A stretch of 64,000 bases of DNA, taken from contig CAIKVT010000021.1 of NCBI GenBank assembly GCA_903830945.1, forward strand, positions 4,519 to 68,518, in the 5' to 3' direction. Of this stretch, positions 2,332 to 64,000 are shown piece after piece. The notes below the pieces were generated by a model that was not told where the DNA came from, did not search any database, and saw only the letters and a program-made list of their open reading frames with translations. Within the stretch, counting starts at the first letter, position 1, and every line of letters begins with the position of its first letter. A program made the position numbers and the translations under genes. This DNA is from an uncultured Elusimicrobia bacterium. Its GTDB lineage: Bacteria > Elusimicrobiota > Elusimicrobia > UBA1565 > UBA9628.

Positions 2332-2937
2332 ATGAGAGAGAACATAGGCCTGCTGTCCTGCATCTCCATCCTGTTCTTCGTGATGGATCCTTTAGGCAAC
2401 ATCCCGGTCTTCGTCGGGTTGCTTAAGGACCTTTCCGCGGAGAGGATGCGCCGCATCATCCTGCGCGAGCATTTGTTCGCCTTAGGTCTGCTGTTCTTCT
2501 TCCTTTTCTTTGGGCAGTTCTTCCTGCAGGTCCTCGGTATCCAGGACCCGGCTCTGGGCATCTCCGGCGGCATCGTGCTCTTCCTCATCGCCATCAAGAT
2601 GGTCTTCCCAATGAAGGAGGGAGTGTTCGGCGACATGCCCGGCGGCGAGCCCTACTTCGTGCCTATCGCGACACCGCTCATCGTCGGGCCTTCGATGATG
2701 AGCACCGTGCTCATCCTCGCCTCCAAGAGCGACGTGGGCTTCTGGCACCTTTGCGCTGCCGTGGTCGTGGCCTGGTCCGCCTCTTTGCTCATCTTGAGCA
2801 ATGCCTTGCGGTTGGCGGGGCTGCTGGGCGAACGGGGTGTGACCGCGATCTCGCGCCTCATGGGCATGATACTGACCACCATCGCGGTGCAGATGTTGCT
2901 CACCGGCCTGGCTCAGTTCTTCGGCAAGTCGGGCTGA
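2332..2937 (+). CDS. MarC family (UPF0056) integral membrane protein
   Basis: 201-aa hydrophobic ORF with the MDPLGNIPVF motif typical of the MarC family. Confidence 0.75.
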   Translation: MRENIGLLSCISILFFVMDPLGNIPVFVGLLKDLSAERMRRIILREHLFALGLLFFFLFFGQFFLQVLGIQDPALGISGGIVLFLIAIKMVFPMKEGVFGDMPGGEPYFVPIATPLIVGPSMMSTVLILASKSDVGFWHLCAAVVVAWSASLLILSNALRLAGLLGERGVTAISRLMGMILTTIAVQMLLTGLAQFFGKSG

Positions 2938-2944
2938 GGCCAGG

Positions 2945-4435: not shown

Positions 4436-4461
4436 TATCATATACATGATGAGGCGCGCCG

Positions 4462-4851
4462 ATGGCTGAACCCCCCCGCATCGTGATCCTGGATGACGAT
4501 GATGCAATCTGTGCTATGTTGACCGCGACCTTGGATGGAAGCTACGAGTGCGTGGTCGGGAAGACAGGACGCGAGGGCCTAAAGATATGCGGCAGCAACC
4601 GCGTGGACCTGGTCCTCACGGACATCGGCATGCCCGAACTCGACGGGATACAGATGCTCGAGGAGTTTCAGAAGGACCCCTGCCTTGCTGCCATACCGGT
4701 CCTGGTCCTCACGGCTACGCATTTCTCGCAGCGCTCCCGTTCGCAAGTGTCTTGCTTCCCCCAGGTGCGCGGCATCCTGCTCAAGCCTTGTTCCGTTGAG
4801 GAGATCACGGGGGCCATCGCCCGCGTCTTGAAAGAGCGCCTGGCAAGTTGA
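4462..4851 (+). CDS. Single-domain response regulator receiver (CheY-like)
   Basis: 129-aa ORF with receiver signatures: ILDDDD, DLVLTDIGMPELDG and a conserved Lys region (PVLVLTA). Confidence 0.8.
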   Translation: MAEPPRIVILDDDDAICAMLTATLDGSYECVVGKTGREGLKICGSNRVDLVLTDIGMPELDGIQMLEEFQKDPCLAAIPVLVLTATHFSQRSRSQVSCFPQVRGILLKPCSVEEITGAIARVLKERLAS

Positions 4852-4865
4852 TCCTGCAGGAGAGA

Positions 4866-7502
4866 TCAGAGCAGTCCGGATAGACTTGCCACCAGTTGGT
4901 CCCAGTCCGCCTCGGGCAGCCCGCCCTGCGCGAAATCGGCCCGACCCCCGGCTGAACCCCCGTGCGCCGCCGCGAATTTTTTTGCCAGGGAGCCAGCGTC
5001 AAAGCCCTTGCCGGCCAAGTCCGGGGTCGCGGCCAGCACGAACGAGATCTTGCCTGCATGCGGCGCGGCTAAGAACACCGCGCCCGAGCCCAGCTCGGAT
5101 TTCAGCTTGTCCGATATGCCGCGCAAAGATTTCGGGTCCGCGCCATCGAGCTTCTGCACGCAGAGCTTGATCCCCTTGGCTTCCAGGACCTGGCGCCCCT
5201 CGGTCGTGCCTGCGAGCCTCTTGGCCTTGAGGCCTATCAGAGCGTTCTCCAGGCTCTTCAAGTGCGTGCGCAGAGACGCTTCCTCGCGCATCGCGCAGGG
5301 AGCGGCTTGCCCGTCCAGCGAGCGGATATCCTTGAGTAAGGCGTCCTGTTTTGCCACGAGTTGCGCCATCGCGGCCTTGTGCGCCTCCGCCTTCTTCACC
5401 ACCCATTCGCTGGCCGCCGGCCCAGCCACCGCCTCGATGCGTCGGATTCCCGCGGCCACCGACGACTCCTTCACGATCTTGAAAGTCTCGATCTCCGCGC
5501 TGTTGGACACGTGCGTGCCCCCGCAGAGCTCCAGGCTGAAGCGGTTATGCGGCTCCTGCCAGCCTTTGGCGCTCACCAGCACCGCGCGTGCCTTCTGTCC
5601 GTAGTCTTCTCCCAATAAGGTGATGGCCCCATGCCTCGCCGCCTCGGCCGGAGGCATCTCCTGGGTGTCCACGGGCAATGCCTTGCGGATGGCATCGTTG
5701 ACGATCTGCTCGATGAGCCTGATCTCTTCTGCGGTCACGGCCTTTGGATGTGTGAAGTCGAAACGCAGACGTTTGTCGTCAACATAGGAGCCCGCCTGGC
5801 GCACGTGCGCTCCCAGCAGCTCGCGTAAGGCCTGGTTCAAGAGATGCGTGGCCGTGTGGTGCGCCGTGGTGCGGCGGCGGCGCTGGGCATCGACTTCGGC
5901 GAGTACCTCGTCGCCGGGCTTGAGCGGAACCATGGCAGAAGCCGCCTTGACCATGAGCACCGTGGAAGCCTCGTACTTCTGAGTGTCCAGGACCTCGGCT
6001 AAGAGCGTGCGGCCGTCCGCGGAGAGGAGCTCTCCCGTGTCGCCGACCTGACCGCCGCTCTCCGCGTAGAATGGCGTGCGCTCTAGGACCACGATGCCCT
6101 CGGCCCCTTGGAAGCGCGCGTCTAAGACTTTGGTCTTTTCGGAGAGACTTTTATAGCCCATAAAAACTGTCGCGTGGGCTGCCAGGCCCTGGGAGAGCAT
6201 GTTTTTCTCCCCGGAGCCCTTCCATGAGGATCGGGCCACTTCGGCCGCGGCCTCTGTGGCCTTCTGGAAGCCCTCTTCGTCGACCTGGATGTGGCGCTGG
6301 AGGCAGATCTCCTTGGTGAGCTCGAGCGGGAATCCGAACGTGTCGTAGAGCTTGAAGGCCTGGTCTCCGGGAAAGGTCCCGGAAGTCTTTTCCAACAGGG
6401 TCATAAGTTCGCGCTCGCCCGCGGCCAGGGTCTCGATGAATCGGCTCTCTTCCATCTTCAAGCCGGTGACCACCTGGGCTTCGGCTGGGACGATCTCGGG
6501 ATAAGTGTTTCGAAAGATCTCCAGCACTGCGGGCAGGAGCTTGTAGAGGAACGGCTCCTGACAGTCCAAGAGTTGCCCGTAGCGCACCGCGCGGCGGATA
6601 AGCCGGCGCAGGACGTAGCCGCGCTCCACGTTGGAGGGGATCACTCCCTCGCTCATCAGCATGGCCGCGGCTCGGGCGTGGTCCGAGATGACCCGGAAGG
6701 CTAGATCCGTATCAGGAGAACGATCAGGATCCACCCCGAGTATGTCCGCGGCCTTGCTCACGATAGGAGTGAAGAGGTCCGTGTCGAAGGGGGAGAGCTT
6801 GCCCTGCGCCACGAAAGCCAGCCGCTCCAAGCCCATGCCCGTGTCGATGTTCTGGCGCGGCAGGGGCTTGAGGCTCCCGTCGCCCTGCCGGTCGAACTGC
6901 GTGAAGACCAGGTTCCAGATCTCGATGTAGCGGTCGCAGTCGCAGCCCGGCGCGCAGGAGGGGCTCGCGCAGGCGAAACGCGCGCCGCGGTCGAAGTATA
7001 TCTCGGAGCACGGCCCGCAGGGCCCCGTCGGTCCCATGGCCCAGAAATTGGTGTCCTCGCCCAATCGCCCGACCGGGTTCTTCAAGGCGAGCTTGCCCCA
7101 GAGAGCGGCGGCCTCTTCGTCGTCTTTGAACACCGTGGGATGCAGCAGCTTCGCATCGAGGCCCATGTCTTGGGTCAGGAATTCCCAGGCCCAGGGGATG
7201 GCTTCGGACTTGAAATAGTCGCCGAAGGAGAAATTGCCCAGCATCTCGAAGAAGGTCAGGTGCCGCAAGGTTTGGCCTACGCGGTCGATGTCCGTGGTGC
7301 GGAAGCACTTCTGGCAGCTCGCGGCGCGGGTGAGGTCCTTTTTGATGCCCAGGAAGTAGGGCTTGAAAGGAACCATGCCTGCGGAGTTGAACATCAGCGT
7401 CGGATCGCCCTGCGGGATGAGGGGAGTCGAAGGGCGCACTATGTGGCCCCGGCTCGTGAAAAAATCAAGGTATTGCTGTCTTAATTGAATTCCAGTTTTC
7501 AT
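4866..7502 (-). CDS. alaS: Alanine--tRNA ligase
   Basis: 878-aa ORF. The N-terminus RPSTPLIPQGDPTLMFNSAGMVPFKPYF is the class II AlaRS signature. The editing and C-terminal domains are of the expected length. Confidence 0.95.
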   Translation of the reverse strand: MKTGIQLRQQYLDFFTSRGHIVRPSTPLIPQGDPTLMFNSAGMVPFKPYFLGIKKDLTRAASCQKCFRTTDIDRVGQTLRHLTFFEMLGNFSFGDYFKSEAIPWAWEFLTQDMGLDAKLLHPTVFKDDEEAAALWGKLALKNPVGRLGEDTNFWAMGPTGPCGPCSEIYFDRGARFACASPSCAPGCDCDRYIEIWNLVFTQFDRQGDGSLKPLPRQNIDTGMGLERLAFVAQGKLSPFDTDLFTPIVSKAADILGVDPDRSPDTDLAFRVISDHARAAAMLMSEGVIPSNVERGYVLRRLIRRAVRYGQLLDCQEPFLYKLLPAVLEIFRNTYPEIVPAEAQVVTGLKMEESRFIETLAAGERELMTLLEKTSGTFPGDQAFKLYDTFGFPLELTKEICLQRHIQVDEEGFQKATEAAAEVARSSWKGSGEKNMLSQGLAAHATVFMGYKSLSEKTKVLDARFQGAEGIVVLERTPFYAESGGQVGDTGELLSADGRTLLAEVLDTQKYEASTVLMVKAASAMVPLKPGDEVLAEVDAQRRRRTTAHHTATHLLNQALRELLGAHVRQAGSYVDDKRLRFDFTHPKAVTAEEIRLIEQIVNDAIRKALPVDTQEMPPAEAARHGAITLLGEDYGQKARAVLVSAKGWQEPHNRFSLELCGGTHVSNSAEIETFKIVKESSVAAGIRRIEAVAGPAASEWVVKKAEAHKAAMAQLVAKQDALLKDIRSLDGQAAPCAMREEASLRTHLKSLENALIGLKAKRLAGTTEGRQVLEAKGIKLCVQKLDGADPKSLRGISDKLKSELGSGAVFLAAPHAGKISFVLAATPDLAGKGFDAGSLAKKFAAAHGGSAGGRADFAQGGLPEADWDQLVASLSGLL

Positions 7503-51466: not shown

Positions 51467-52105
51467 ATGGATGAGCATCTCCAAGTCGGAACATTGAATA
51501 TCCTGATGAATGCGGCAGAGGCCCTGAGGAAGAATGGCTTTGAGACCGAGGTGTTCGCGGACGGGGCGTCCGCGGTTGCGTACATCCTCAAGCTGATAGG
51601 CTTGGGCAAGACCGTGGGAATTGGCGGGACTATGAGCGTCGTGGAGCTCGGGCTTGCCGAGCGGCTGGTCGCGGCCCGCAACGAGATCGTCACCCATCAG
51701 CCTGGCATGGGGCCGGAGGAGCGCCGGCGCGTCTTCCGTCAGGCCCAGGCCGCTGATTTCTATATCGCTTCGCCCCAGGCCGTGACGCGGGACGGCAAGA
51801 TGATCTTCGTCGACGGATTTGGGAATCGCGTGTCCGCCATCAGCTATGGCCCGGGGCGGGTCATTCTGCTGGCCGGGCGCAACAAGCTGGTCCGAGATAT
51901 CGATGAGGGGCTCTGGCGGATGCGGAACATCGCCGCGTTGGCCAACAACATAAGGCTCAAGAAGAATAACCCTTGCGTGAAGGCCGGGCTTTGCGTGGAC
52001 TGCTCGAGCCCGGAGCGCATCTGCAATGTGGTGACCATGCTTTGGAAGAAGCCGCGTGGCACGGAGTACAGCGTGGTCCTAGTCAATGAGGAGCTCGGAT
52101 ATTGA
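51467..52105 (+). CDS. LUD-domain (DUF162, LutC/YkgG-like) protein
   Basis: 212 aa, with conservation of the LUD fold (GIGGTMSVVELGL.., ASPQAVTRDGKMIFVDG). Confidence 0.6.
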   Translation: MDEHLQVGTLNILMNAAEALRKNGFETEVFADGASAVAYILKLIGLGKTVGIGGTMSVVELGLAERLVAARNEIVTHQPGMGPEERRRVFRQAQAADFYIASPQAVTRDGKMIFVDGFGNRVSAISYGPGRVILLAGRNKLVRDIDEGLWRMRNIAALANNIRLKKNNPCVKAGLCVDCSSPERICNVVTMLWKKPRGTEYSVVLVNEELGY

Positions 52106-52141
52106 CCGGGCCTGCATTTTGGGCTAAAATATAATTACTTC

Positions 52142-52217
<76 letters not shown>

Positions 52218-52230
52218 ATCTCTGTGAAAA

Positions 52231-52260
52231 AAGCCCTCTGGCAAGAGGGCTTTTTTATTT
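52231..52260 (+). terminator. Rho-independent terminator downstream of tRNA-Ala
   Basis: The hairpin gccctct-ggca-agagggc at 52233-52250 is followed by tttttt. Confidence 0.75.
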
Positions 52261-52416
52261 TGTGCCGACGCGCGATGCTCAGGCTGGTTAGATAAACGGA
52301 ATACAAGTGTTCAACCGTTCCAATTTCTCAGACGGTTGTTTTCATCTTAAAATATCAGCCAGATTTTTTAGGCAAGTTCATCCCGGTATCTGTCTGTCTT
52401 GAAAAATGACCTCGAC

Positions 52417-52436
52417 ATGGACACTTTTTGGACACC
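52417..52436 (+). repeat. 20-nt direct repeat, copy 1 (atggacactttttggacacc; internal GGACAC-T5-GGACAC)
   Basis: It is identical to 63591-63610. It lies in the AT-rich spacer between the tRNA-Ala terminator and the ECF sigma gene. Confidence 0.8.
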
Positions 52437-52469
52437 AATAGCCGTCCCCGGCATTGATGCTTCTGGGAA

Positions 52470-53192
52470 ATGCGCATAGCCCGTGTATTGATTAATCATT
52501 TGGTTCATCGTCTTGATAATGCCATTATTTACACACTGTGCGAGTCTCGGAACATTGACTGCAATGACCGACCGCAGGCACTAAACCTTCGGGGACTTCC
52601 AGAGTCTATATTATCAGCAGGCATCTTGAACGGCCAGAACGTCGACATTGAACTCGTCGAGAGGGCGCGCAAAGGCGATGCCGATGCCTTTGGGATCCTG
52701 GTCATGCATTATCAACGCCTGCTCACAGTTATCGCATTTGAGATTCTGGGAGACACGGGGAGAACGGAGGATGTCGTGCAGGAAGCGTTCCTGTCCGCAT
52801 GGAAATCCCTCCCCCAATATAGGGGAGACGCCAGCTTCAAGAACTGGCTGTGCCGCATCCTGCTTAATAAGACCTATTCCGCGCTTCGTTGGGGACGCCT
52901 GCGCCGATGGCTCAGCCTCGACCAGCCATCCGGGGTTCCCTGGACCGAGACCTTGGAGGATACCGCGCCCGACGCGGACCCGGAACGCATCCGTCTGCGG
53001 GAGGAGCATTCGACCGCGGTGCGGCAGGCCGTGTCCGGTTTGCCGCTCCAGCAGAAGACCGCGGTCATATTGCGCTCCAACGGTCTTGACGTGGCCGAAG
53101 TGGCGCGGACCATGGGCGTCGCGGAGGGGACGGTCAAGGCGCATCTGCACCAGGCCCGCGCTCGACTCTCCTCGGTGATGGGGGGTACATGA
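52470..53192 (+). CDS. ECF (group 4) sigma-70 family RNA polymerase sigma factor
   Basis: Region 2 (LVERARKGDADAFGILVMHYQRLL..VQEAFLSAWKSL..FKNWLCRILLN) and region 4 (LRSNGLDVAEVARTMGVAEGTVKAHLHQARARL) are present. The ATG at 52470 gives 240 aa. A TTG at 52626 would give a more typical ~189 aa, so the start is uncertain. Confidence 0.8.
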   Translation: MRIARVLINHLVHRLDNAIIYTLCESRNIDCNDRPQALNLRGLPESILSAGILNGQNVDIELVERARKGDADAFGILVMHYQRLLTVIAFEILGDTGRTEDVVQEAFLSAWKSLPQYRGDASFKNWLCRILLNKTYSALRWGRLRRWLSLDQPSGVPWTETLEDTAPDADPERIRLREEHSTAVRQAVSGLPLQQKTAVILRSNGLDVAEVARTMGVAEGTVKAHLHQARARLSSVMGGT

Positions 53193-53536
53193 AACAAGAA
53201 GAAGACGACGCATTCTGGTCTGGAGTCGGGGACACGCTCCGGCCCCGCCTCAGCGAAGCTCATTGGACGGCTCAGCGCAACCGCATCCTTTCGCGGTTGG
53301 CCCCGGAGGAATCCGTGTCCGCATTCGCCGGCTGGTGGAAAGTCCCGGCGTTGACGCTGGCCTCGTGCGCTGTCTATGTGCTGTGCGTGGAGACATCCCT
53401 GCTCCCCCAGCCCACATCCGAACCGCCGGCCGCGGCGTCCTCGTCCGCCGGCGTCGTGACCCTGTCGACCATCCTGTCTGACGGGCAGGAGCCGAGCGAA
53501 GGGCATCTTTTGACCATGATCCTTGAAGGGGACTAA
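53189..53536 (+). CDS. Putative membrane-anchored anti-sigma factor
   Basis: 115 aa, translationally coupled to the ECF sigma gene (ATGA overlap), with a single TM (WWKVPALTLASCAVYVLCV). It is assigned by position and topology only. Confidence 0.5.
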   Translation: MKQEEDDAFWSGVGDTLRPRLSEAHWTAQRNRILSRLAPEESVSAFAGWWKVPALTLASCAVYVLCVETSLLPQPTSEPPAAASSSAGVVTLSTILSDGQEPSEGHLLTMILEGD

Positions 53537-53960
53537 AATGAACATGCGCTGGAATCAGATCGCCATATCGGTCGCGGTGGGCTTCCTTGCGGGAGCCTTG
53601 TTCTCCGATTTCTATCACATGCATATCAAGCGCAGGCCGCCCAAGGCCGTCCCGGAGGAAGGGGCGATAGAGAGGTGCACGCGCGAGTTGGACCTTTCCA
53701 AGCAGCAGCAGGACCAGGTGGCCGCCATCTTCAAGGAATATCGTCCAAAAGTGCGCGGTGTGAAGGATTCGATCCGGCCCGCATTGGAAGGCCTGCGCCT
53801 CAAGATCAAATCCGAATTGAGATCGGTCCTTACGCAGATGCAATACTCCAAGCTCGAAAAGCTCGACGATGAGTCCCGGCGGACCGAGGGTCCTCCGCCA
53901 ATGCGGGAGGGTCCAGGAGATTCCCGGCTACACGGCCAGGACCCGCCCCCCCGCCGCTAA
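53523..53960 (+). CDS. Periplasmic LTXXQ-motif protein (Spy/CpxP/ZraP-like)
   Basis: 145 aa with a signal/TM sequence, then helical repeats (LDLSKQQQDQVAAIFKEY.., LRLKIKSELRSVLTQMQYSKL) and a Pro-rich tail. The true start may be MNMRW at 53538. Confidence 0.5.
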   Translation: MKGTKMNMRWNQIAISVAVGFLAGALFSDFYHMHIKRRPPKAVPEEGAIERCTRELDLSKQQQDQVAAIFKEYRPKVRGVKDSIRPALEGLRLKIKSELRSVLTQMQYSKLEKLDDESRRTEGPPPMREGPGDSRLHGQDPPPRR

Positions 53961-54129
53961 GCCAGCGCCCTCCGGCGCAGACTCATCCGTTCCCACCCCC
54001 TAAATCCTCCTGCAGGGTCAACCGGGCCAGAATGCGTGTATTTTACAGGCATTTCCCCAAGTAAACCAAAATCCTTCCTGGGCGTCTCCATTGATGCAGG
54101 GGCTTTAGCCGGGCCGTCACAGAGGGTAT

Positions 54130-54687
54130 ATGCAAAAATCGATGGCCGCGATCTGCAACGCCGCGATCAGCGTGTGCCTTGGGACGATGATCCTGGGCGG
54201 CCGCGTGCAGGCTGCGGACTTCGGATCGGATGTGGGGCAAGGCACTTTCGGCGTCGGGCTGAACTACCCGGGGCTGGGCATGAGATATTTCCCGAGCGAT
54301 CAGCTGGCCTTGGAAGTCAAAGGCGAAGTAGACAAGGACGTGGTGGTCGGAGGCCTGCGGGGGTATTGCTATTTGACGCGCGTTTCCCGAGGAGCGCTTT
54401 TTCTGGGCGCGGAAGCCGACTACATACATTTCAAGGGAGCGGTCAGCCGGGGTTCCGGGGCTGTAGGCCAGGTGTTCGGCGGGTTCGAGTATTTTATATT
54501 GCAGGCTGTCGCTTTGCAGGCTGATTTTGGGCCGGCCTACATCTACCTTAAGAACCAGCAGGGCGGCCTTTCAGTCAGCGGCGTGGAGTACACGGCCAAT
54601 TTCGGGTTCAATTTCTATTGGGGAGGCAGAATGGCGCAAGAATCTCGGCCTTATACGCGGGATGAGGCTTCATGGTTGAGATATTGA
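54130..54687 (+). CDS. Small outer-membrane beta-barrel protein (OmpW/OmpA-barrel-like)
   Basis: 185 aa with a signal peptide, alternating hydrophobic beta-strand pattern and an aromatic-rich terminal strand (ANFGFNFYWGG). Confidence 0.5.
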   Translation: MQKSMAAICNAAISVCLGTMILGGRVQAADFGSDVGQGTFGVGLNYPGLGMRYFPSDQLALEVKGEVDKDVVVGGLRGYCYLTRVSRGALFLGAEADYIHFKGAVSRGSGAVGQVFGGFEYFILQAVALQADFGPAYIYLKNQQGGLSVSGVEYTANFGFNFYWGGRMAQESRPYTRDEASWLRY

Positions 54688-54688
54688 T

Positions 54689-57600
54689 ATGAAACGAATA
54701 TCCTGCTTGATCCTATTGGCGATCTTATCGATCACGGTCGATCTTTCAGCCGGATTCGACATCGGAATCACCAAAGCCATCAAGCGCAAGGTGGATTTGC
54801 TGGACAATAAAGTCACGGACAGCAGGAAGCCCGTGGTCTCGTTCGGATTCTCGCCGAGCGCACCCACCCCGGGCCAGACGGTAAGCTTCATCGACGTCTC
54901 CACGAATACGCTTACGTCATGGTCATGGGCATTCGGGGATGGTGCGACCAGCACCTCCCAAAACCCGGCCCACGCCTACAGCTTCGCGGGAACCTACGCA
55001 GTGACGCTCACAGGCACGAATGCCTGGGGCTCCAGCACCGCCAGGAAGACCGTGACCGTGACGGCCGCGGCGGTCGCGCCGGTCGCGGCCTTCAGCTTCT
55101 CGCCGTCCTCGCCGACCGCCGACCAGACGGTCACTTTCACGGACGTCTCCACCCACACGCCCACTTCCTGGTCTTGGACCTTCGGGGACGGGGGGACCAG
55201 CACTTCGCAAAACCCGACCCACGCCTACACTCCCTCCGGGACCTACATGGCCACGCTGACGGCCTCCAATTCAGCCGGCTCCAACGCCGTCAGCCGCACC
55301 GTGACCGTGAACCCGAGCTCTTTTTCCCTCGCTAGCTCCGCCTTCGCCGAGGGCGGAACCCTGCCGTACGACTACGCCTGCGACGGAGGAGGCGCCTCGC
55401 CCGACCTGTCCTGGAATAATAAGCCGTCCGGCACGCAGGAATTCGCGCTGACGATGAAGACTATAACTGCAGACGGGACGCCTAAATGGAACTGGGTGAT
55501 GTACAGCATCCCCGGGACGACTACGGGCTTGGCCAAGAACACTTCCGGGGTAGGCGTTACCGGGCTTGGCAGCGACCTGTCAGCCCTGGTCTATAATCCG
55601 CCCTGCTCGCTGGGGCCCGGACCCAGGACTTACACCCTGACCTTGTACGCGCTGTCGGAGTCGCCGACCCTGCCCGCCGCCGACCAGGTCACCGGCGCCG
55701 TGCTTATCAGCGCCATTTCGTCCATCACGATCAGTTCGACTTCCCTGGACATGACCTACAGCCGGCCCGCCCCCACGGCCGCTTTCACCTTCTCCCCGTC
55801 CTCTCCGTCTACTGGCACGATCGTTGCTTTTATGGATACCTCCACCCGCACGCCCACCGGCTGGTACTGGGACTTCGGGGATGGGGCGACCAGCAGTTCG
55901 CGGAACTCCACACACGCCTACAGCTCTGCGGGTACGTACACCGCATCGCTGACGGCCTCCAATCCGTACGGCTCCTCCAGCTCAAGCCAGGCCGTGACAG
56001 TCAGCGCGACTGGGATCCTACCCACGGCCGCGTTCAGCTTCTATCCGAGCAGTCCGACCACCTATAACACGGTAAGCTTCACCGACTTCTCGCTGAGCAC
56101 CCCGACGGCCTGGGCCTGGAATTTCGGCGACAGCGCCGTCAGCACGGCACAGTACCCGACGCACGTATACGGCTCCGCGGGCACCTACACCGTGACGCTC
56201 ACGGCGACTAATTCCTCCGGCTCGTCCACCTCGACCCATTCCGTGACCGTGGCCGTGCCGGCCTATAACATCGCGCAGGGCGTTTCCGACCAGGCCCAGG
56301 GCACCACTTTGGCCTTTGACGCCCTCGGCCTGATGAACGCCAACCTGGGCGCCGAATCCTATTTCCCGCCGGGCAAGGTGGCCGACTACACAGGCTTCCA
56401 GTTCCTACGCGACAGCGACCCCAGCAATATGGGCCACAACCCGGATTTCACGGGCCTGACCTCCAACAGCGTCATCCGTATACTCACCGACAGCCAACTG
56501 GCGCAACTGGCTGCCCTGGCCGTGAGCCAGGCGGACCTGGTCAACCAGTACGCATATCACCGCTTCACGCTGATAAAGGCGTTCCGGCGTCTTATGGACG
56601 GGGATATGCCCTCCGGCACCGCCGGTCTGAGCATGAGCGCGGTGACGGGCGTGTCGCAGAACCTCTACGCTATGGACGGCCAGATCGCCTTCGACCGGGC
56701 CCTGCTCTACGCCAACATCTACAAGTCCATGACGCGCGCCCAGCTGGCCGCCCTGGATGCCATGAAAGGGGTGGGCGCCTCCTCCTGGACCGTAACCGAC
56801 GCCAATTTCATGAAGGCCAGGGTAGAGTCCGCGCTGGGTCTCACCTATGCTTCCAACGCGACGATGAACACCCTGGTGCAGACCTACGCCGGCGACCTCT
56901 ACAGCTGGTATTCCGGCACGGTGGAGGCGGACGTCTACTTCTGCCCGGAGCGCCACGGCACCTACTACGGCGGGTTCTACATCAAGGACGCGCCGGCCAT
57001 GAACGCGCCGCAGGGCGTCAGTTACACCATTGACTCGGCTCTGACCGGGAACGCCGGGGCCAGCCTTCTCGACAGCTCGCTGGGCTACGTCACACCCACG
57101 CAGGCCGCCATCATGACTAACCTCATGAACACCCAGAAGAGCAACATGAACGGCATAGTCCAGGTGCGCACGCAGATAGCGGCTCTGCTGCGCACCCTGC
57201 TTGTCTCTACCGCTGCCAGCGACTCCGTCAGGGCGCAGGTGCTCGCGCTGTCCTCCGGCACCTACGGCACGCTGGACGGCCGGAACAACTACTACTACGC
57301 CACCGCCTTCAAGCAGGTCCATGACGCGCTGAGCGCTAGCCAGCGGGCCAAGCTGAAAACGGATTTCTGGGATGGGCTGCTTATCAGCACCTACACCAAC
57401 GGAAAAACTTACGACTATTCGGTCTGCAAATCCACTTATCTCTATTCGGACACCACCACCGACCCGAGCGTGCTGGCCCAGATACAGACTTACATAGACA
57501 ACACCGACTCCCTGTTCTCCACCGACCCGCCCTCGGCCGCGTTCTCATTCTCGCCGAGCACGCCCACGGTCGGGCAGACGATCACGTTCACGGACGCCTC

Positions 57601-58225
57601 CGACGGCCCCCCAACCTCATGGTCGTGGGATTTTGGTGACGGCGGCACCAGCGCGTCGCAGAACCCGACGCACTCTTACGATTCCTCCGGCACCTACACT
57701 GTCTCGCTGACGGCCACCAATGCCATCGGCTCGAGCTCCATAAGCCATACCCTCAGCGTCAGCCAGGGAAGTTTTACCCTGGTGAGCGGCGCGGGGGCCA
57801 GCGGCGGGGCCATGACGCTGGAATATTCCTGTTCCGGCGCCGGGTCTTCGCCGGCGATGTCCTGGACCAACGCGCCCTCCGGGACGCAACAGTTCGCTCT
57901 GACCATGTCTGAAGTCACTCCCCAGTTGGAGACCAAATATAACTGGGTCCTCTACGGCATACCAAGCGGCAGTTCCGGCTTTGCCAAGAACACTACCGGC
58001 GGTGGAACGCTGGGCGAGAGCGACGGAACGGCGGGAACGGCTTACAGCCCGCCCTGCGGCCCCGGTAACAGGCTTTATACGTACAGACTCTACGCCCTGT
58101 CCGGAGCCCCATCGCTCTCGTCCAATCCGGCGCAGGTAACAGGTTCCGTTCTTGCGACCGCGCTCGCGGGCATCACCATCAGTTCCGCGACCATGACGCT
58201 GACCTATACGGCGCCATCGCCATGA
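54689..58225 (+). CDS. Giant secreted multidomain protein: five PKD domains, two PEBP (YbhB/YbcL) domains and a central ~400-aa domain of unknown family
   Basis: 1178 aa. PKD signatures WxWxFGDGxTSxxQNPxHxY occur at about aa 77, 166, 392, 476 and 976. PEBP-like segments lie at about aa 215-335 and 1032-1150 (..YACDGGGASPDLSW.., ..YTLTLYAL..). The central region (about aa 527-955) is paralogous to the protein at 58992-60626. Confidence 0.8.
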   Translation: MKRISCLILLAILSITVDLSAGFDIGITKAIKRKVDLLDNKVTDSRKPVVSFGFSPSAPTPGQTVSFIDVSTNTLTSWSWAFGDGATSTSQNPAHAYSFAGTYAVTLTGTNAWGSSTARKTVTVTAAAVAPVAAFSFSPSSPTADQTVTFTDVSTHTPTSWSWTFGDGGTSTSQNPTHAYTPSGTYMATLTASNSAGSNAVSRTVTVNPSSFSLASSAFAEGGTLPYDYACDGGGASPDLSWNNKPSGTQEFALTMKTITADGTPKWNWVMYSIPGTTTGLAKNTSGVGVTGLGSDLSALVYNPPCSLGPGPRTYTLTLYALSESPTLPAADQVTGAVLISAISSITISSTSLDMTYSRPAPTAAFTFSPSSPSTGTIVAFMDTSTRTPTGWYWDFGDGATSSSRNSTHAYSSAGTYTASLTASNPYGSSSSSQAVTVSATGILPTAAFSFYPSSPTTYNTVSFTDFSLSTPTAWAWNFGDSAVSTAQYPTHVYGSAGTYTVTLTATNSSGSSTSTHSVTVAVPAYNIAQGVSDQAQGTTLAFDALGLMNANLGAESYFPPGKVADYTGFQFLRDSDPSNMGHNPDFTGLTSNSVIRILTDSQLAQLAALAVSQADLVNQYAYHRFTLIKAFRRLMDGDMPSGTAGLSMSAVTGVSQNLYAMDGQIAFDRALLYANIYKSMTRAQLAALDAMKGVGASSWTVTDANFMKARVESALGLTYASNATMNTLVQTYAGDLYSWYSGTVEADVYFCPERHGTYYGGFYIKDAPAMNAPQGVSYTIDSALTGNAGASLLDSSLGYVTPTQAAIMTNLMNTQKSNMNGIVQVRTQIAALLRTLLVSTAASDSVRAQVLALSSGTYGTLDGRNNYYYATAFKQVHDALSASQRAKLKTDFWDGLLISTYTNGKTYDYSVCKSTYLYSDTTTDPSVLAQIQTYIDNTDSLFSTDPPSAAFSFSPSTPTVGQTITFTDASDGPPTSWSWDFGDGGTSASQNPTHSYDSSGTYTVSLTATNAIGSSSISHTLSVSQGSFTLVSGAGASGGAMTLEYSCSGAGSSPAMSWTNAPSGTQQFALTMSEVTPQLETKYNWVLYGIPSGSSGFAKNTTGGGTLGESDGTAGTAYSPPCGPGNRLYTYRLYALSGAPSLSSNPAQVTGSVLATALAGITISSATMTLTYTAPSP

Positions 58226-58295
58226 TGAAAGATCCAGGCGCCGCCAGGCTGGACTTCTTGCCGGCAAAACAGTTTAAACTATGTCTGGAGGAATT

Positions 58296-58910
58296 ATGAA
58301 ACGGCTGACATTTTTAGAGCTTGGCTTGATGCTAGTGCTTTCCCTTCCGGGCGGAGCCGCCCTGGCGCAGTCGGAGCAAGGCGCGGTGAGGAAAAGTCCC
58401 GCACTCCACTTCATCCTGCGTAGCCCGGCGGTGGATGGCGGCGGACAGCTCCCGAAAGACTACACCGGCGACGGAACCAGTTCCACGCTGCCGCTCGAAT
58501 GGAACGGAGCCCCAAAGGAGACAAAGAGTTTCGCAATCATCATGCATCATGTGGCGCCTGACATGATCAAGTGGTACTGGATCCTCTACGACATTCCGGC
58601 CAAAGTCAGGCGCCTGCCCAAGAACGTGAAAGGCGTGGGCAAGCTTGGCAACAACAGCGTCAACGGCCGGGTGGAGTACGCCCCGCCGCATTCCAAGGGC
58701 CCGGGACCCAAGACCTACATCTACACCCTCTACGCCCTATCCGCGCCGCCCAAGCTGGCTGTGCCACCGATTGAAGTCAACCGCGACGCCTTGCTCGCCG
58801 CCATGAAGGGCCTCGTCATCGACAGCGCCCAGCTAAGCGTGGTTTACGAACGGTTTCCCGCACCGGACGGCCGCGAGGGGAATGCGCCGCCCCCAAACGA
58901 CCGGCCATAA
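58296..58910 (+). CDS. Secreted PEBP family protein (YbhB/YbcL, Raf-kinase-inhibitor-like)
   Basis: Signal peptide, then PEBP motifs (LPLEWNGAPKETKSFAIIMHH..DMIKWYWILYDIP..GPKTYIYTLYAL). Confidence 0.8.
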   Translation: MKRLTFLELGLMLVLSLPGGAALAQSEQGAVRKSPALHFILRSPAVDGGGQLPKDYTGDGTSSTLPLEWNGAPKETKSFAIIMHHVAPDMIKWYWILYDIPAKVRRLPKNVKGVGKLGNNSVNGRVEYAPPHSKGPGPKTYIYTLYALSAPPKLAVPPIEVNRDALLAAMKGLVIDSAQLSVVYERFPAPDGREGNAPPPNDRP

Positions 58911-58991
58911 TGCAAGGAATTATATGAGGGCTGACCTAAACCAAAATCATGTTCGGGCGTCTGTATATATGAGGGGTCTTGAGGAGGACTT

Positions 58992-60626
58992 ATGAAAATG
59001 AGAGCGTTCTTGATAGCCGCAATTTTCTCCCTATTGGCTTGGTCAGCTGGGAATTCTTATGCCCAGGAAGAGAATGGCGGGGGTGGAAGAGGCCCGCGCA
59101 GAGGATCGCAGTCTGTCTCCGCAGAGCAAAAGGCCTCCGCCAAGAATGCCCTTTCGGGCTACAACGCCTCGAGCCTCTCAGCCGACGATGCCAAGGCCAT
59201 CCACAGGGCCATGCGGGAGATCGGCATCCACGGGGGGCCTGCGGAGGACGAGCTTCTCAGCTCCATCGGGTTCGACCCCGAAACGCTTAAGAAACTCGAT
59301 CCGCCGCCGGCCAGGCGCGGCGGCCAAGAGAGAGGGGGCAATAGCGGAGGGAGCTCACGGGAGGACCGCGGCGGAGGGATGCGCGGGGACCAGGGCCAAG
59401 ACAGAGGCGGCGAGAGAGCTGGGGCGAGGCCGGGCCCATCGGGGAAGCGCGGCCCGGGCGGCAGCCAATATAGCCTCGAGCAGGCGCTCTCGGACAACGC
59501 CCAGCTGCACACCATCGCATTCAATGGACTGGCGTTTCTGACCGGCGATTTCGGTGCAGCCACCTTCATCCCGCCGGGCAAGGTGTGCGACTTCTTTGGG
59601 TTCCAATACATGCGCGACATCGACGCGGCGAAGAAGGGGCATAACCCCATCTTCCTCAACCGCGTCGTGGGAAACGTCCTTCATATCCTCACAGCCGATC
59701 AAAAGCAGCTGTTTCTGGACCTGGCGGCGGAGCAGGGGCCGCAGCTTACGGCCCTGGCGAAGCTGCGGCTGCCGGTCATCAAGGCTTTCCACCTACAGAG
59801 GGACAACCAGCTGCCTGCGGGCAGTTCCGGGCTGAACAAGGCAGCCGTCATGCGCGGCGTCGGCGAGATCTTCGCCATGGACGCCGAACTCAGCCGCCGT
59901 CGGGCGGAGGTCATGGCGCAGGTGTATTTATCCCTGACGCCTGACCAGAAGGCTTCCTTCGCCAGGATGAAGTTCGGCGATTTCAACACCTGGGCGGACC
60001 TCGACGAGAGCGAAGGCAAGGAAGCCGGCCGCGGCAAGCCCAAGATGTTCAACGTGGCCTATATGACCTACGCCAGCGAGTTCTTCAGCTGGACCGCCGG
60101 CTCGGTGGAAGCGGACGTCTATTTCTGCCCGGAGCGTCACGGCACGTACTTCGGCGGATTCTACATGAAGGACATGCCCGCCATGGGCAAGCGCAATTAC
60201 GACATCAGCACCTCGGTCACCGGCGACAGCGGCAAGGCGTTCCTTGACGACGCGCTCACCCCCGCCCAGCGCCAGAACGTCACAGCGATCCCCGCCCTCC
60301 AGCGGCAGGCCATGGACAAGATCGTGACGGTGCGCCGGGCGATGTCCCAGGAGCTGCGCAAATACCTCAAAGGCCAGACGCCGGACAAGAAAAGGATAAT
60401 AGCGTTGGGCCGCCAATACGGCGAACTGGACGGTGAGGTGTCCTGGTACTATGCCACGGCCTTCGCCCGCGTCAACCGCACGCTCACCGCTCAGCAGCGC
60501 GCTGCATTGGTCAAGCTGCGCAACTTGGACGGCTACACGAGCGCGCCCTATTACATCTATTCGGATGGTGCGCGGGAGGAGCCGGAATTGGGAGACGTCG
60601 ATGCCTTCTTCTTTGCGCCTAAATAA
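58992..60626 (+). CDS. Secreted protein: Gly/Arg-rich low-complexity N-terminal segment plus a ~400-aa domain of unknown family shared with the giant PKD protein
   Basis: 544 aa with a signal peptide. About aa 28-160 are RGG/GGR-rich. About aa 165-544 align with the giant-protein centre (shared blocks FIPPGKVxDFxGFQ..RD.D....GHNP.F and SVEADVYFCPERHGTYFGGFY.KD.PAM). Confidence 0.7.
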   Translation: MKMRAFLIAAIFSLLAWSAGNSYAQEENGGGGRGPRRGSQSVSAEQKASAKNALSGYNASSLSADDAKAIHRAMREIGIHGGPAEDELLSSIGFDPETLKKLDPPPARRGGQERGGNSGGSSREDRGGGMRGDQGQDRGGERAGARPGPSGKRGPGGSQYSLEQALSDNAQLHTIAFNGLAFLTGDFGAATFIPPGKVCDFFGFQYMRDIDAAKKGHNPIFLNRVVGNVLHILTADQKQLFLDLAAEQGPQLTALAKLRLPVIKAFHLQRDNQLPAGSSGLNKAAVMRGVGEIFAMDAELSRRRAEVMAQVYLSLTPDQKASFARMKFGDFNTWADLDESEGKEAGRGKPKMFNVAYMTYASEFFSWTAGSVEADVYFCPERHGTYFGGFYMKDMPAMGKRNYDISTSVTGDSGKAFLDDALTPAQRQNVTAIPALQRQAMDKIVTVRRAMSQELRKYLKGQTPDKKRIIALGRQYGELDGEVSWYYATAFARVNRTLTAQQRAALVKLRNLDGYTSAPYYIYSDGAREEPELGDVDAFFFAPK

Positions 60627-60632
60627 GGAAGA

Positions 60633-62051
60633 ATGCTGATGATCCGCATACCGGTCATCGGAATCATCCTCGCCCTGGCCGCAGGCCCGGCTTGCGCAGC
60701 GCCGGATGCCGAGGGGCGGGGTCGCGGCGGGCGTCACGGTCCGGAGCACCAGGCCAAGGTCGAAGTGCCTGCGCGTCCTCTGGATGTCGTTCTCGGCAGA
60801 CCCACGGCGACCTCGGTCACGGCCAGCGTCCTTTTGTACGCAGGCGGACGCGGAAGCGTCGAGTATGGAGTGCGCCAGGGAGAGTACCCGGACCATACTC
60901 CCGTGACCGAGTTCGGCAAAGGAACCCCGGTCCACATGGTGATCGGACCCCTTAAGGCCGACACGCGCTATTATTATCGGTTCCGTCACGAGACCGCCGG
61001 CGCGCAGGGCGCGGTCGCAGGCACATTCCACACCCAGCGCGCGCCCGGCAGCGCTTTCGTGTTCACTGTGCAGGCTGATTCTCACCTGGATCAGAACACA
61101 AGCACCGAGCTCTACGAGCGGACGCTGCGCAACGCCCTGGCCGACAGGCCGGATTTCCATATCGACCTGGGCGACACGTTCATGACCGGGAAGTATCGGG
61201 GCCAGGATCCATCGAGGCTTTACCTGGCGCAGCGCTACTATTTCGGCTTGCTTTGCCATTCCGCGCCTCTTTTTTTCGTGCTCGGCAATCACGACGGGGA
61301 ACCAGGCGGCGGCCGCGGACAGCCAGCCGACGCGATCCTGCTGCGCAAGAAGTACTTCCCCAACCCTGTCCAGGACGGGTTCTACACGGGAGAGGACCGT
61401 GGCGCCCTGGAGAACTATTACGCGTGGCAATGGGGCGACGCGCTGTTCGTCGTGCTCGACCCGTTCCGATATTCCGGTCGGCCTCGTGGCGAGCCGGAGG
61501 ACAACTGGAACATGACTTTGGGGGCGGAGCAATATCATTGGCTGAAGCGGACTCTGGAAAACAGCAAGGCCGCGTTCAAATTCGTGTTCATCCATCATCT
61601 GGTCGGTGGTGTAAACCGCGACGGCCGCAACCGCGGCGGGGCCGAGGCCGCGGCGTTCTATGAGTGGGGGGGGCGCAACGCGGACGGCAGCGATGGTTTC
61701 GCGGAGCAACGCCCCGGCTGGGAGATGCCCATCCAGCAGCTCCTTGTGCGCAACGGCGTGCAGATCGTTTTTCACGGTCACGACCATTTTTTCGCGAAGC
61801 AGGACCTGGGCGGCATCGTCTACCAGCTTGTGCCGCAGCCCGGAGCACAGGAGCGCCGCAGCGTGCGAGAAGCCGAACGCTATGGATATGAGAAAGGCGA
61901 ATTCCTGAGCAGCCCCGGCCACCTGCGCGTCCGCGTGTCCCCGAACAGCGCTGTTGTGGAGTGCGTCCGGTCACGCTTGCCGGAAGATGAGGGGATGCGG
62001 AAAGAGAAAGACGCGGTCGCCTACACCTATACGATCCCGGCTGCGCCATAA
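60633..62051 (+). CDS. Secreted calcineurin-like metallophosphoesterase with a purple-acid-phosphatase-type N-terminal domain
   Basis: Signal peptide, then an FN3-like N-domain (..VTASVLLYAGGRGSVEYGV..ADTRYYYRFRH). Phosphoesterase motifs are present: GDTFMTGKY, VLGNHDGE and FHGHDHFF. Confidence 0.8.
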   Translation: MLMIRIPVIGIILALAAGPACAAPDAEGRGRGGRHGPEHQAKVEVPARPLDVVLGRPTATSVTASVLLYAGGRGSVEYGVRQGEYPDHTPVTEFGKGTPVHMVIGPLKADTRYYYRFRHETAGAQGAVAGTFHTQRAPGSAFVFTVQADSHLDQNTSTELYERTLRNALADRPDFHIDLGDTFMTGKYRGQDPSRLYLAQRYYFGLLCHSAPLFFVLGNHDGEPGGGRGQPADAILLRKKYFPNPVQDGFYTGEDRGALENYYAWQWGDALFVVLDPFRYSGRPRGEPEDNWNMTLGAEQYHWLKRTLENSKAAFKFVFIHHLVGGVNRDGRNRGGAEAAAFYEWGGRNADGSDGFAEQRPGWEMPIQQLLVRNGVQIVFHGHDHFFAKQDLGGIVYQLVPQPGAQERRSVREAERYGYEKGEFLSSPGHLRVRVSPNSAVVECVRSRLPEDEGMRKEKDAVAYTYTIPAAP

Positions 62052-62065
62052 TCGGATTAGCGCGA

Positions 62066-62251
62066 TCAGGGTGTAGGTGCGGGCCGGAAGACTTTCTTGC
62101 AAAGCCGCCAAATCACGACGCCGACATGCCGCACGACAATCTTATCTCGGCTCGCCTTCATCCCTTTTTTGGCCAGGGCGATCAGCCGCCGCTCAGCTGC
62201 CAGAGGCAGCCTCGGATACTGCCGGACCACCTCGCGATAAGCTTCCCACAT
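62066..62251 (-). pseudogene. Possible truncated remnant of a sigma-70 family gene (regions 1.2-2.1 only)
   Basis: The 61-aa ORF YREVVRQYPRLPLAAERRLIALAKKG..SRDKIVVRHVGVVIWRLCKK resembles sigma-70 region 1.2 (YLREIGRVPLLTxEEEIxLAKR) and the start of region 2 (KxKLIEANLRLVVSIAKKY). It ends abruptly 15 nt from the phosphoesterase stop codon. Confidence 0.3.
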
Positions 62252-62409
62252 ACGGCATATGATGACGAATGCGGATGCGGCTTACACACTCGGCCGAGAG
62301 AGGCGGTCGGGGCCGTGGAGTTTGAGGCCGTAGGCTCATTCTTCGGGGTTGGGGCCGATATTATAATTGACATATAACATGGCGTTTATTATGATAATAG
62401 CCGCTATAT

Positions 62410-63564
62410 ATGGTAACCAATATGCCTGAAAACATCACACGGATACTCGACATCCGTAAAGAAGTCGAGAAAAAGTCGTGTTTCCTATTCGGCCCCAGGC
62501 TGACAGGGAAGACTTGGCTTCTGCGGCATACTCTTAAAAATATCCGGACCTACAACTTGTTGGACCACGACACCTTTCTGCGTCTCAGCCGCTCTGCCAG
62601 CCTCATAGGTGAGGAATGTACGGCTCGGGACTCCATCGTCGTCATCGATGAGGTCCAGAAGCTCCCTTCGCTGCTTGATGCGGTCCACATGCTCATCGAG
62701 GAGCGAGGGATCCATTTTCTTTTGACCGGATCCAGCGCCCGAAAGCTGCGCCGCGGCGGCGTCAACTTGTTGGGGGGCAGGGCCCGGATCAGGAATCTCT
62801 ACCCCTTGAGTTTCTCCGAACTACAGAAGTCCTTCAATCTTGAGCGTGCCGTCAACCACGGACTGCTCCCGGCTATTTACTCGTCGCAGGAGCCGGACGA
62901 GGACTTGAAGGCCTATGTGGGCACGTACCTTCAAGAGGAAGTGGCCGCCGAAGGATTGACGCGAAATATCCCGGCCTTCAGCCGATTCCTGGAAGTGGCC
63001 GCCTTGTGCAACGGCAAGATGATTAATTTCGCCAACATCGCCAACGACGCACAGGTGGCGCGCAGCACCGTTCAGGAATACTTCCAAATACTCAAAGACA
63101 CATTGCTCGCTCATGAGGTGCCGGCTTGGCGCAAATCCGTAAGGCGTAAGCCCATCACAACCTCGAAATTCTATCTGTTCGATTCAGGGGTCGCCCGGAT
63201 CCTTCAGCACCGTGGCCGCATCAATCCTGGCTCTCCGGAATTCGGAGAAGCCTTCGAACACTTCATATTCCATGAATTGTTGACCTACGCCGACTATTGC
63301 CGGGCAGGAGAGATCCGCTACTGGCGGTCGCTCTCCGGTTTTGAGGTCGACTTCGTCCTGGGAGACACTGCAGCCATCGAAGTGAAAGCTGGCAAGAACG
63401 TGTCTCCGCAGGACCTCAAGGGTCTGCGCGCCTTACGCGAAGAGGGGGGCCTCAAGCACTATCTAATGGTGTCCGGCGAGAGAACCGCGCGGGTCATCGA
63501 CGGCATACGCATTCTTCCCTGGAAGGAATTCCTCCAACAGCTTTGGGATGGACGATTCAGCTGA
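62410..63564 (+). CDS. AAA-family ATPase of the AAA_14/DUF4143 type
   Basis: 384 aa with Walker A FLFGPRLTGKTWLL and Walker B VVIDEVQKL. The C-terminal ~150 aa have the conservation typical of DUF4143. An AT-rich promoter-like region lies upstream. Confidence 0.7.
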   Translation: MVTNMPENITRILDIRKEVEKKSCFLFGPRLTGKTWLLRHTLKNIRTYNLLDHDTFLRLSRSASLIGEECTARDSIVVIDEVQKLPSLLDAVHMLIEERGIHFLLTGSSARKLRRGGVNLLGGRARIRNLYPLSFSELQKSFNLERAVNHGLLPAIYSSQEPDEDLKAYVGTYLQEEVAAEGLTRNIPAFSRFLEVAALCNGKMINFANIANDAQVARSTVQEYFQILKDTLLAHEVPAWRKSVRRKPITTSKFYLFDSGVARILQHRGRINPGSPEFGEAFEHFIFHELLTYADYCRAGEIRYWRSLSGFEVDFVLGDTAAIEVKAGKNVSPQDLKGLRALREEGGLKHYLMVSGERTARVIDGIRILPWKEFLQQLWDGRFS

Positions 63565-63590
63565 CGGGACGTCCTCAAACCATAGGAAAG

Positions 63591-63610
63591 ATGGACACTT
63601 TTTGGACACC
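63591..63610 (+). repeat. 20-nt direct repeat, copy 2 (atggacactttttggacacc)
   Basis: It is a perfect match to 52417-52436, and lies 26 nt after the ATPase stop and 85 nt before the tRNA-Ala fragment. Confidence 0.8.
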
Positions 63611-63695
63611 GGGGAAGTCCTGAAGAGTGCTGTCAGTATCGAATAGCGCATGCGCCATCAGCAATTTTAGCCACTGAGCGGCATCCGTGATTGGC

Positions 63696-63743
63696 TGCAT
63701 GGCATGCAAGAGGTCGTCAGTTCGATCCTGACTAGGTCCACCA
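63696..63743 (+). other. Direct repeat of the 3' 48 nt of tRNA-Ala (46/48 identical, includes CCA): candidate att site / island boundary
   Basis: tgcatggcatgcaagaggtcgtcAgttcgatccTgactaggtccacca matches 52170-52217 with two mismatches. The sequence upstream (gccactgagcggcatccgtgattggc) is not tRNA-like. Confidence 0.8.
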
Positions 63744-63764
63744 TTTCAAGCAGCGTCAGTGGCA

Positions 63765-63812
63765 AGAAATCGGCCGGAGCACTTTTGAGTGCTTCGGCCG
63801 ATTTCTTCTTGG
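63765..63812 (+). terminator. Terminator-like long imperfect hairpin followed by a T-rich tract
   Basis: aaatcggccggagcac at 63767-63782 pairs with gtgcttcggccgattt at 63789-63804, followed by cttcttggtg. Confidence 0.45.
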
Positions 63813-63930
63813 TGCGATACTATCATGAGAGAGTTCATGTGTCTCTCAATGGGCGAGTGTCCGCAGAAAGGCTAGAATAAAAAGAACAATATTGTGCGAA
63901 GCTGAATCGGAGCACCGGCTTGCCGACCTC

Positions 63931-64000
63931 ATGACATCCTCAAGCATCCGCGTCATCCTCCATGTCGATATGGATGCATACTTCGCTTCGGTCGAGCAGA
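63931..64000 (+). CDS. dinB: DNA polymerase IV (Y-family), N-terminal 23 codons only
   Basis: It translates to MTSSSIRVILHVDMDAYFASVEQ. The HVDMDAFFASVE segment is the conserved Pol IV N-terminus containing the catalytic Asp residues. It runs off the window. Confidence 0.7.
   Translation, partial: MTSSSIRVILHVDMDAYFASVEQ

Follow-up and report, generated by a model that had tools for sequence, protein, structure and literature searches.

The island at the tRNA-Ala(GGC) gene

The 64-kb stretch of DNA analysed here, referred to as the window, contains an island of 11.5 kb, which is bounded at its left end by an intact tRNA-Ala(GGC) gene and at its right end by a 48-nt direct repeat of the 3' part of this gene, with a length of 11,526 bp from att to att. 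A tRNA-integrated island is recognised by this arrangement, in which one end carries the intact tRNA and the other repeats its 3' part in direct orientation. The positions of all features are given in Table 1. The cargo comprises genes for an ECF sigma factor, a 115-aa protein, an LTXXQ-like protein, a 185-aa protein, a 1178-aa PKD/PEBP protein, a PEBP protein, a 544-aa LTXXQ protein, a metallophosphatase, and an AAA_14/DUF4143 ATPase. The longest open reading frame of the ECF sigma gene starts at 52470, and the start called in public assemblies corresponds to 52626. The third-position GC content (GC3) of the genes at the island ends is 0.68-0.69, compared with approximately 0.8 in the flanks. 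On the right, the chromosomal gene dinB follows the hairpin that lies behind the tRNA repeat; the IMS (DNA polymerase IV) domains of its product were seen in a public contig.

Table 1. Coordinates of the features at the island and its junctions in the 64-kb window.
Feature	Position	Strand	Basis
tRNA-Ala(GGC), intact, left junction (attL)	52142..52217	+	ARAGORN; Rfam tRNA, 63.7 bits
48-nt att identity block, copy 1, tRNA positions 29-76 (within the anticodon stem to CCA)	52170..52217	+	Direct-repeat family D7, 46/48 versus 63696-63743
Intrinsic terminator directly after the rebuilt tRNA, island-borne	52227..52256	+	Terminator scan: 13-pair stem and T run
Candidate int-distal arm, two tandem P2-type sites	52417..52436	+	Exact 20-mer; tRNA-upstream class
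Island cargo, nine genes	52626..63564	+	Pfam scan; gene calls in public assemblies
Candidate arm, int-proximal in intact elements, two tandem P2-type sites	63591..63610	+	Exact 20-mer; 85 nt before the att repeat
48-nt att identity block, copy 2 (attR), displaced native tRNA-Ala 3' part	63696..63743	+	Repeat family D7
Hairpin (20-nt arms) behind the displaced tRNA 3' part	63764..63807	+	Inverted repeat I6, 95% complementary

The two copies of the att identity block differ at only two positions, which are compensatory in the T stem (GTCGG/CCGAC versus GTCAG/CTGAC, i.e., a G-C versus an A-T pair). They therefore represent two different functional alleles of tRNA-Ala, one native and one borne by the element. 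The functional tRNA-Ala is probably a chimera of a 5' part from the host and a 3' part with its terminator from the island; a crossover in the anticodon loop would have led to this supply of the 3' part by the island. The hairpin behind the displaced 3' part is probably the original terminator of the tRNA gene. The layout of tRNA fragment, terminator and arm recurs in related attP regions as well as in another Elusimicrobiota locus (L111), in which tRNA-Ala(GGC) and a terminator are followed by the identical 20-mer.

Within the cargo, a 233-nt repeat is present in five diverged copies in the region at 54829-57761, which belongs to the gene of the 1178-aa protein; the two copies of an adjacent pair are 249 nt apart, and Pfam assigns five PKD-domain stretches and PEBP domains to this protein. 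Additionally, a stretch of 121 nt at 56881-57001 is 84% identical to a part of the gene of the 544-aa LTXXQ protein (60065-60185).

Copies and half-sites of the repeat

An earlier note on this DNA had described a perfect 20-nt direct repeat just inside both ends of the island, upstream of the ECF sigma gene and after the ATPase gene, and both the repeat and its placement were confirmed. The 20-mer ATGGACACTTTTTGGACACC occurs in two exact copies with 0 mismatches, both on the + strand, and no third copy was found in the window when up to three mismatches were allowed. The left copy lies 199 nt past the 3' end of tRNA-Ala(GGC). The right copy follows the stop codon of the ATPase gene (63564) after 26 nt, and a further 85 nt separate it from the 48-nt repeat of the tRNA 3' part. 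The repeat is not random, since 100 dinucleotide shuffles of the window yielded 0 matches to the 20-mer; according to our own arithmetic, approximately 0.002 exact direct repeats of 20 nt are expected per 64 kb.

The earlier note had given the unit as GGACAC-T5-GGACAC. The two tandem half-sites per copy hold, but the unit is better described as TGGACAC with a period of 11 bp, or one helical turn. The half-sites are located at 52418-52424 and 52429-52435 in the left copy and at 63592-63598 and 63603-63609 in the right copy, all on the + strand, with a start-to-start distance of 11 nt and the spacer TTTT in both copies. A search for the relaxed pattern GGACAC-N5-GGACAC, which the note had proposed for the whole genome, was run on the 64-kb window and revealed nothing further above chance. 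With regard to additional half-sites in the arms of the island, a single inverted match of 8/10 was found at 52304, which is not above chance, and an Rfam scan of 51900-64000 identified the tRNA alone, without any match to the motif.

The position of the left copy upstream of the ECF sigma gene, together with tandem half-sites that are compatible with a dimeric regulator, would suit an operator or promoter for a transcription factor or for the ECF sigma factor of the island, used twice to regulate island genes. However, the right copy follows the last gene of the island and has only the tRNA fragment and the hairpin beyond it, and direct inspection revealed neither an ECF-type pattern of -35 and -10 elements (GGAAC-N16/17-CGT) nor a sigma-54 pattern (GG-N10-GC). 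The direct orientation of the copies just inside the island ends could likewise suggest that they arose by duplication of a target site or mark the termini of another, older element lying within the tRNA island. Yet without such an inner element, the outer island would shrink to about 300 nt, and neither a transposase nor a second att repeat is present. Both readings can be judged further from the occurrence of the motif in other genomes.

Occurrence of the motif in other genomes

A collection of species-representative genomes (one genome per species, 596 Gb) was searched for exact matches to the 18-mer core TGGACACTTTTTGGACAC. The core was found at no fewer than 120 loci, and in addition in 17 viral contigs, compared with a chance expectation of approximately 17 for the whole 596-Gb set (own arithmetic). 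The occurrences represent at least 134 distinct contexts with unconserved flanks, and the part common to them consists only of the 18-mer and the pyrimidine that follows. The hosts belong to more than ten phyla and include Elusimicrobia, Omnitrophota, Binatia, Planctomycetota, Verrucomicrobia, Nitrospirota, Bacteroidota, Actinobacteria, and several proteobacterial genera.

Among the matches listed, an integrase ORF ends at the motif in 42 of 145 oriented occurrences. A tRNA or tmRNA gene lies within 160 nt downstream in 40 of these 145 listed matches, with a gap of 44-100 nt in all but one, and a tRNA on the + strand lies within 260 nt upstream in 13 of them, including the left copy in the window and the one in L111, with gaps of 63-226 nt. 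Neither a tRNA gene nor an integrase was present within the stretch examined in 64 of the 145 occurrences among the matches listed; T-loop-like fragments are threefold enriched around occurrences without a detected tRNA. All of the ORFs that run through the motif and were aligned (22/22) encode Phage_integrase proteins, with an average identity of 27%. In these ORFs, the motif lies 20-35 codons past the catalytic tyrosine, and its reading frame is one of two, giving xDTFWT in 12 ORFs and GHFLDT in 14, and the constraint therefore acts on the DNA and not on the protein.

Since the same 18-mer recurs in at least 134 unrelated contexts, it must be regarded as a recognition site for a protein and not as a target duplication or the terminus of an element. 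A target duplication cannot explain one sequence with unrelated flanks in many phyla, and the copies in the window belong to the same tRNA-integrated island and not to an older element nested within it, as the earlier note had considered; this reading is extremely improbable. The regulatory box recruited twice, which the same note had offered as another option, fares little better and is very improbable: a homologue of the ECF sigma factor is found in only 2 of 137 motif loci among the matches listed, and the motif instead follows the 3' ends of integrase genes and tRNA genes across phyla.

A connection with the DUF4143 ATPase gene was also considered, in which the motif would be part of a gene cassette, e.g., as an operator or recognition site. 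The right copy follows the ATPase stop after 26 nt, homologues of the ATPase occur in two motif loci (L063 and L060), and the ATPase is 63-85% identical across several phyla. However, the closest cassettes (L221-L224) do not contain the motif even at up to four mismatches, and their homology to the window at the DNA level extends precisely to the stop codon of the ATPase gene and no further. The association was thus tested and none was found, and we rejected this link, which has almost no probability left. Independently of the motif, the ATPase gene (62354-63564 in the window) and approximately 56 nt upstream of it, which contain an AT-rich near-palindrome (ATTATAATTGACAT...TTTATTATGATAAT), behave as a discrete cassette. 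It shows 78.6% DNA identity to an Elusimicrobia MAG, and the closest ATPase protein, from the same group, is 85% identical, while ATPase proteins with 63-70% identity are found in Omnitrophota, Planctomycetota and Gammaproteobacteria as single insertions between unrelated genes. The gene is clearly mobile.

Arm sites are usually regarded as particular to each integrase. Here, one exact 18-bp arm sequence is common to integrases of about 27% identity in more than ten phyla and is embedded in the 3' coding ends of their genes. A full-text literature search for the 17-mer of the motif and for the lambda arm consensus string returned no paper.

An intact example of such an element is found in a tandem array in Omnitrophota (L115), in which the integrase gene and the motif are followed by 72 nt, a core derived from tRNA-Pro, 115 nt and a second motif. 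This element (reverse strand; oriented positions 2880-6400) carries tRNA-Pro positions 1-41, which reach as far as the anticodon loop, and at about 17 further loci the tRNA likewise follows the motif on the same strand. Elements that carry the 5' half of a tRNA therefore replace the 5' part on integration and leave displaced 5' halves in a tandem array. In the textbook case, integration replaces the 3' part of the tRNA.

Attachment-site architecture in a motif-blind viral sample

The architecture was also examined in 80 viral loci with related integrases, which were chosen by the catalytic motif HxLRHxxAS and thus blind to the arm motif. In many of these loci, the final 30-85 nt of the integrase gene contain a lineage-specific tandem pair with an 11-bp period, and the same pair recurs approximately 150-185 nt past the int stop codon. 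Examples of such pairs are GTGGGCAAAATGTGGGCA, TGGCCCCGATTTGGCCCC, CGGTCCCCAAACGGTCCCC and TGTAGTCAAAATGTAGTCA. In the three of five regions read through in which a tRNA fragment could be recognised (L192, L172 and L184), the pairs bracket a tRNA 3' fragment and a terminator.

This is also the layout that results when the two ends of the island in the window are joined: the stop codon of the ATPase gene, 26 nt, an arm pair, 85 nt, the 48-nt tRNA core, the terminator, 158 nt, the second arm pair and the sigma gene. The joined ends are a complete canonical attP of the P2-like integrase family without the integrase gene.

Relationship to P2-like integrases and assignment of the repeat

A profile of the motif-linked integrases aligns with P2 Int along its entire length, with the N-terminus covered (hhalign probability 100%, E = 2e-45), and the best solved relatives are 5c6k, HP1 Int (1aih, second-best) and 5dor. 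The RefSeq features of phage P2 comprise an Int-binding P arm (TGTGGTCAATGTGTGGACG), an IHF site, a 27-bp core and an Int-binding P' arm (acTGTGGACACTGTGTGGACACtctcg). The P' arm (TGTGGACACTGTGTGGACAC) is part of the 3' end of int, and 86 nt separate it from the core. Arm sites are recognised by the N-terminal domain of the integrase, and their consensus has been described as tgTGGaCa for the P2 type and tgccGCCActt for the 186 type (Nilsson et al., 2011, PMC3448106). The half-site TGGACAC of the window is contained in the P2 sequence TGTGGACAC and fits the P2-type consensus. Moreover, the P' arm of P2 contains TGGACAC-N4-TGGACAC, and the 11-bp register is the same in both P2 arms and in the window.

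The assignment is based on the sequence identity to the P2 arms, the association of the motif with P2-like integrase genes and tRNA att sites, and the geometry of the attP. Taking these observations together, we consider it highly probable that the two 20-mers are the P and P' arm-type integrase-binding sites of an island that entered tRNA-Ala(GGC) by site-specific recombination of a tyrosine integrase. Recombinase arm sites were among the options named in the earlier note, and this option is now strongly supported by the half-site and register of P2 Int, by the linkage described above, and by the presence of the motif on both arms of the reconstructed attP. That an integrase would bind these particular copies is inferred from sequence comparison.

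Accessory recombination proteins, such as a Cox/Xis-type excisionase or directionality factor or a DNA-bending host factor, also have to be taken into account as the protein that binds the sites in place of the integrase. Tandem direct repeats are typical of Cox/Xis sites near att cores as well, and the Cox boxes of P2 are located between the core and the P' arm. However, the half-site is that of the Int-binding arms annotated in P2 and not that of the Cox region, the site is present on both arms as Int arm sites are, and a minimal element in the Omnitrophota array (L115-2) consists only of AbiE-like genes and the integrase, with no Xis-like gene. Binding by an accessory protein is accordingly improbable.

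For integrase arm sites, homology to P2 and lambda suggests the following course of recombination. The small N-terminal domain of a heterobivalent P2-like integrase would contact the tandem arm pairs that flank the core, while the catalytic and core-binding domains would hold the crossover region, presumably the quasi-palindromic anticodon stem-loop, where the identity block begins. The bridging of arm and core, together with bending proteins, would then fold attP, or attL and attR, into the complex that exchanges the strands, and in this way the island may have been inserted into tRNA-Ala(GGC).

The assignment as arm sites fixes the limits of the island and its mode of acquisition and removes a supposed regulatory element. 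In addition, the exact 18-mer provides a cheap and very specific marker for the att arms of a widespread subfamily of P2-like integrases. As a pair, it can delimit islands after the loss of int and could reveal integrase-less, possibly trans-mobilised islands that are missed by integrase-anchored finders.

Status of the integrase-less island

No integrase gene was found in the island by the Pfam scan, nor in the 64-kb window by tblastn with 22 integrases. Because the gene is absent from both, no cognate binder was identified. The presence of both att sites with arm sites and the absence of recombination genes correspond to a non-autonomous, CIME-like architecture. The island may well be a relic that has lost int; with a lower, though still appreciable, probability it may be a non-autonomous element that can still be moved by a cognate integrase encoded elsewhere.

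The cargo in the window stops 26 nt short of an arm that normally lies within int. Two public contigs, one of 11,609 bp from sample ERZ1426818 and one of 11,596 bp from sample ERZ1426660, contain exactly the genes of the island and nothing else according to their gene lists, and could represent a circular form or a strain-variable island. However, the gene lists place the island in every public contig that carries the identical neighbouring LUD-domain protein (51467-52105 in the window). A comparable structure is found in a Planctomycetia MAG (L092, CAYPYS010000004.1, positions 3100-5600), which contains an integrase-less mini-island of 2.4 kb at tRNA-Glu with a single cargo gene of 590 aa and arm pairs at both ends; its tRNA-Glu repeat starts at position 26. 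The left arm consists of two different pairs, TGGTCACTATTTGGTCAC and ATGGACACTTTTTGGACACC, and the right arm of CAGTCACTATTTGGTCAC, which contains the lambda-type arm 9-mer. The variant pair GGTCACTATTTGGTCAC had 0 matches in viral contigs. The end of the cargo 26 nt from the arm, the similar build of the mini-island and the two island-only contigs are hints at a non-autonomous status, none of which is decisive.

The mini-island, together with the exact arm sequence common to integrases of about 27% identity, suggests a shared "currency" of arm sites, with unrelated islands using each other's integrases. In a more general form, integrase-less cargo islands would keep a full attP-type architecture of core, terminator and both P2-type arm pairs, their cargo stopping no more than about 30 nt from the arm that is usually part of int, and P2-like integrases encoded at other sites of the same cell would move them in trans, which we put forward as a speculative and rather doubtful proposal.

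A metagenome scan for the motif, followed after 70-100 nt by the anticodon arm of tRNA-Ala, yielded one contig (L219) and no integrase-bearing parent of the island in the window. This contig (Ga0208373_1037434; positions 400-640 and 2116-2270) is derived from an AT-rich organism and has a complete tRNA-Ala(GGC) 62 nt downstream of the motif. Two cargo genes on the minus strand occupy the place of the integrase, and a truncated C-terminal fragment of an integrase lies 1.5 kb further upstream.

Comparison with known systems

Phage P2 shares further features with the window in addition to the half-site and its register. In both, there is one tandem pair on each side of the core, with the pairs in direct orientation, and 86 nt (P2) or 85 nt (window) separate the int-proximal pair from the core. 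In P2 and the intact relatives of the island, the 3' end of int is overlapped by one of the pairs, whereas the island in the window has no integrase gene that overlaps an arm. The systems also differ in the spacer, which is TTTT in the window and TGTG in P2, and in the core, which is a segment of a tRNA gene in the window, while P2 uses non-tRNA sites. The distal arm of the window lies behind the terminator, at approximately 200 nt from the end of the tRNA and approximately 240 nt from the anticodon loop; the corresponding distance in P2 is 35 nt. In the subfamily to which the window belongs, TGGACAC is found on the int-coding strand, whereas it is on the opposite strand in P2 and in the GTGGGCA viral group; the polarity of the half-site relative to int is thus inverted.

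Phages 186 and HP1 have integrases of the same family, integrate into tRNA genes, and possess direct-repeat arm sites on both sides of the core, but the sequence of the half-site is different (consensus tgccGCCActt). Viral relatives with the pair TGCCCAC-ATTT-TGCCCAC resemble this 186/HP1 type. The arm sites of lambda Int (P1, P2 and P'1-3) are the paradigm of a heterobivalent integrase; they are 10 bp in length (AGGTCACTAT, CAGTCACTAT), and a tandem set abuts the 3' end of int at about 46 nt from the core. The variant pair TGGTCACTATTTGGTCAC of the Planctomycetia mini-island contains the lambda 9-mer GGTCACTAT. However, lambda Int is more distant from the motif-linked integrases (E = 3e-17 versus 1e-57 for 5c6k), and its sites differ in sequence and number.

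CIMEs and other integrase-less, att-flanked islands resemble the island in the window in that both att junctions with arm sites are present and a recombination module is lacking. CIMEs were defined from ICE families of Firmicutes; for the island in the window, the searches found neither an integrase-bearing parental element in metagenomes nor a co-resident integrase within the 64 kb. Overall, the repeat belongs to a known kind, the P2-type arm sites of a tRNA-integrated island, and is less ordinary only in the integrase-less state of this island and in the sharing of the exact arm sequence across phyla.
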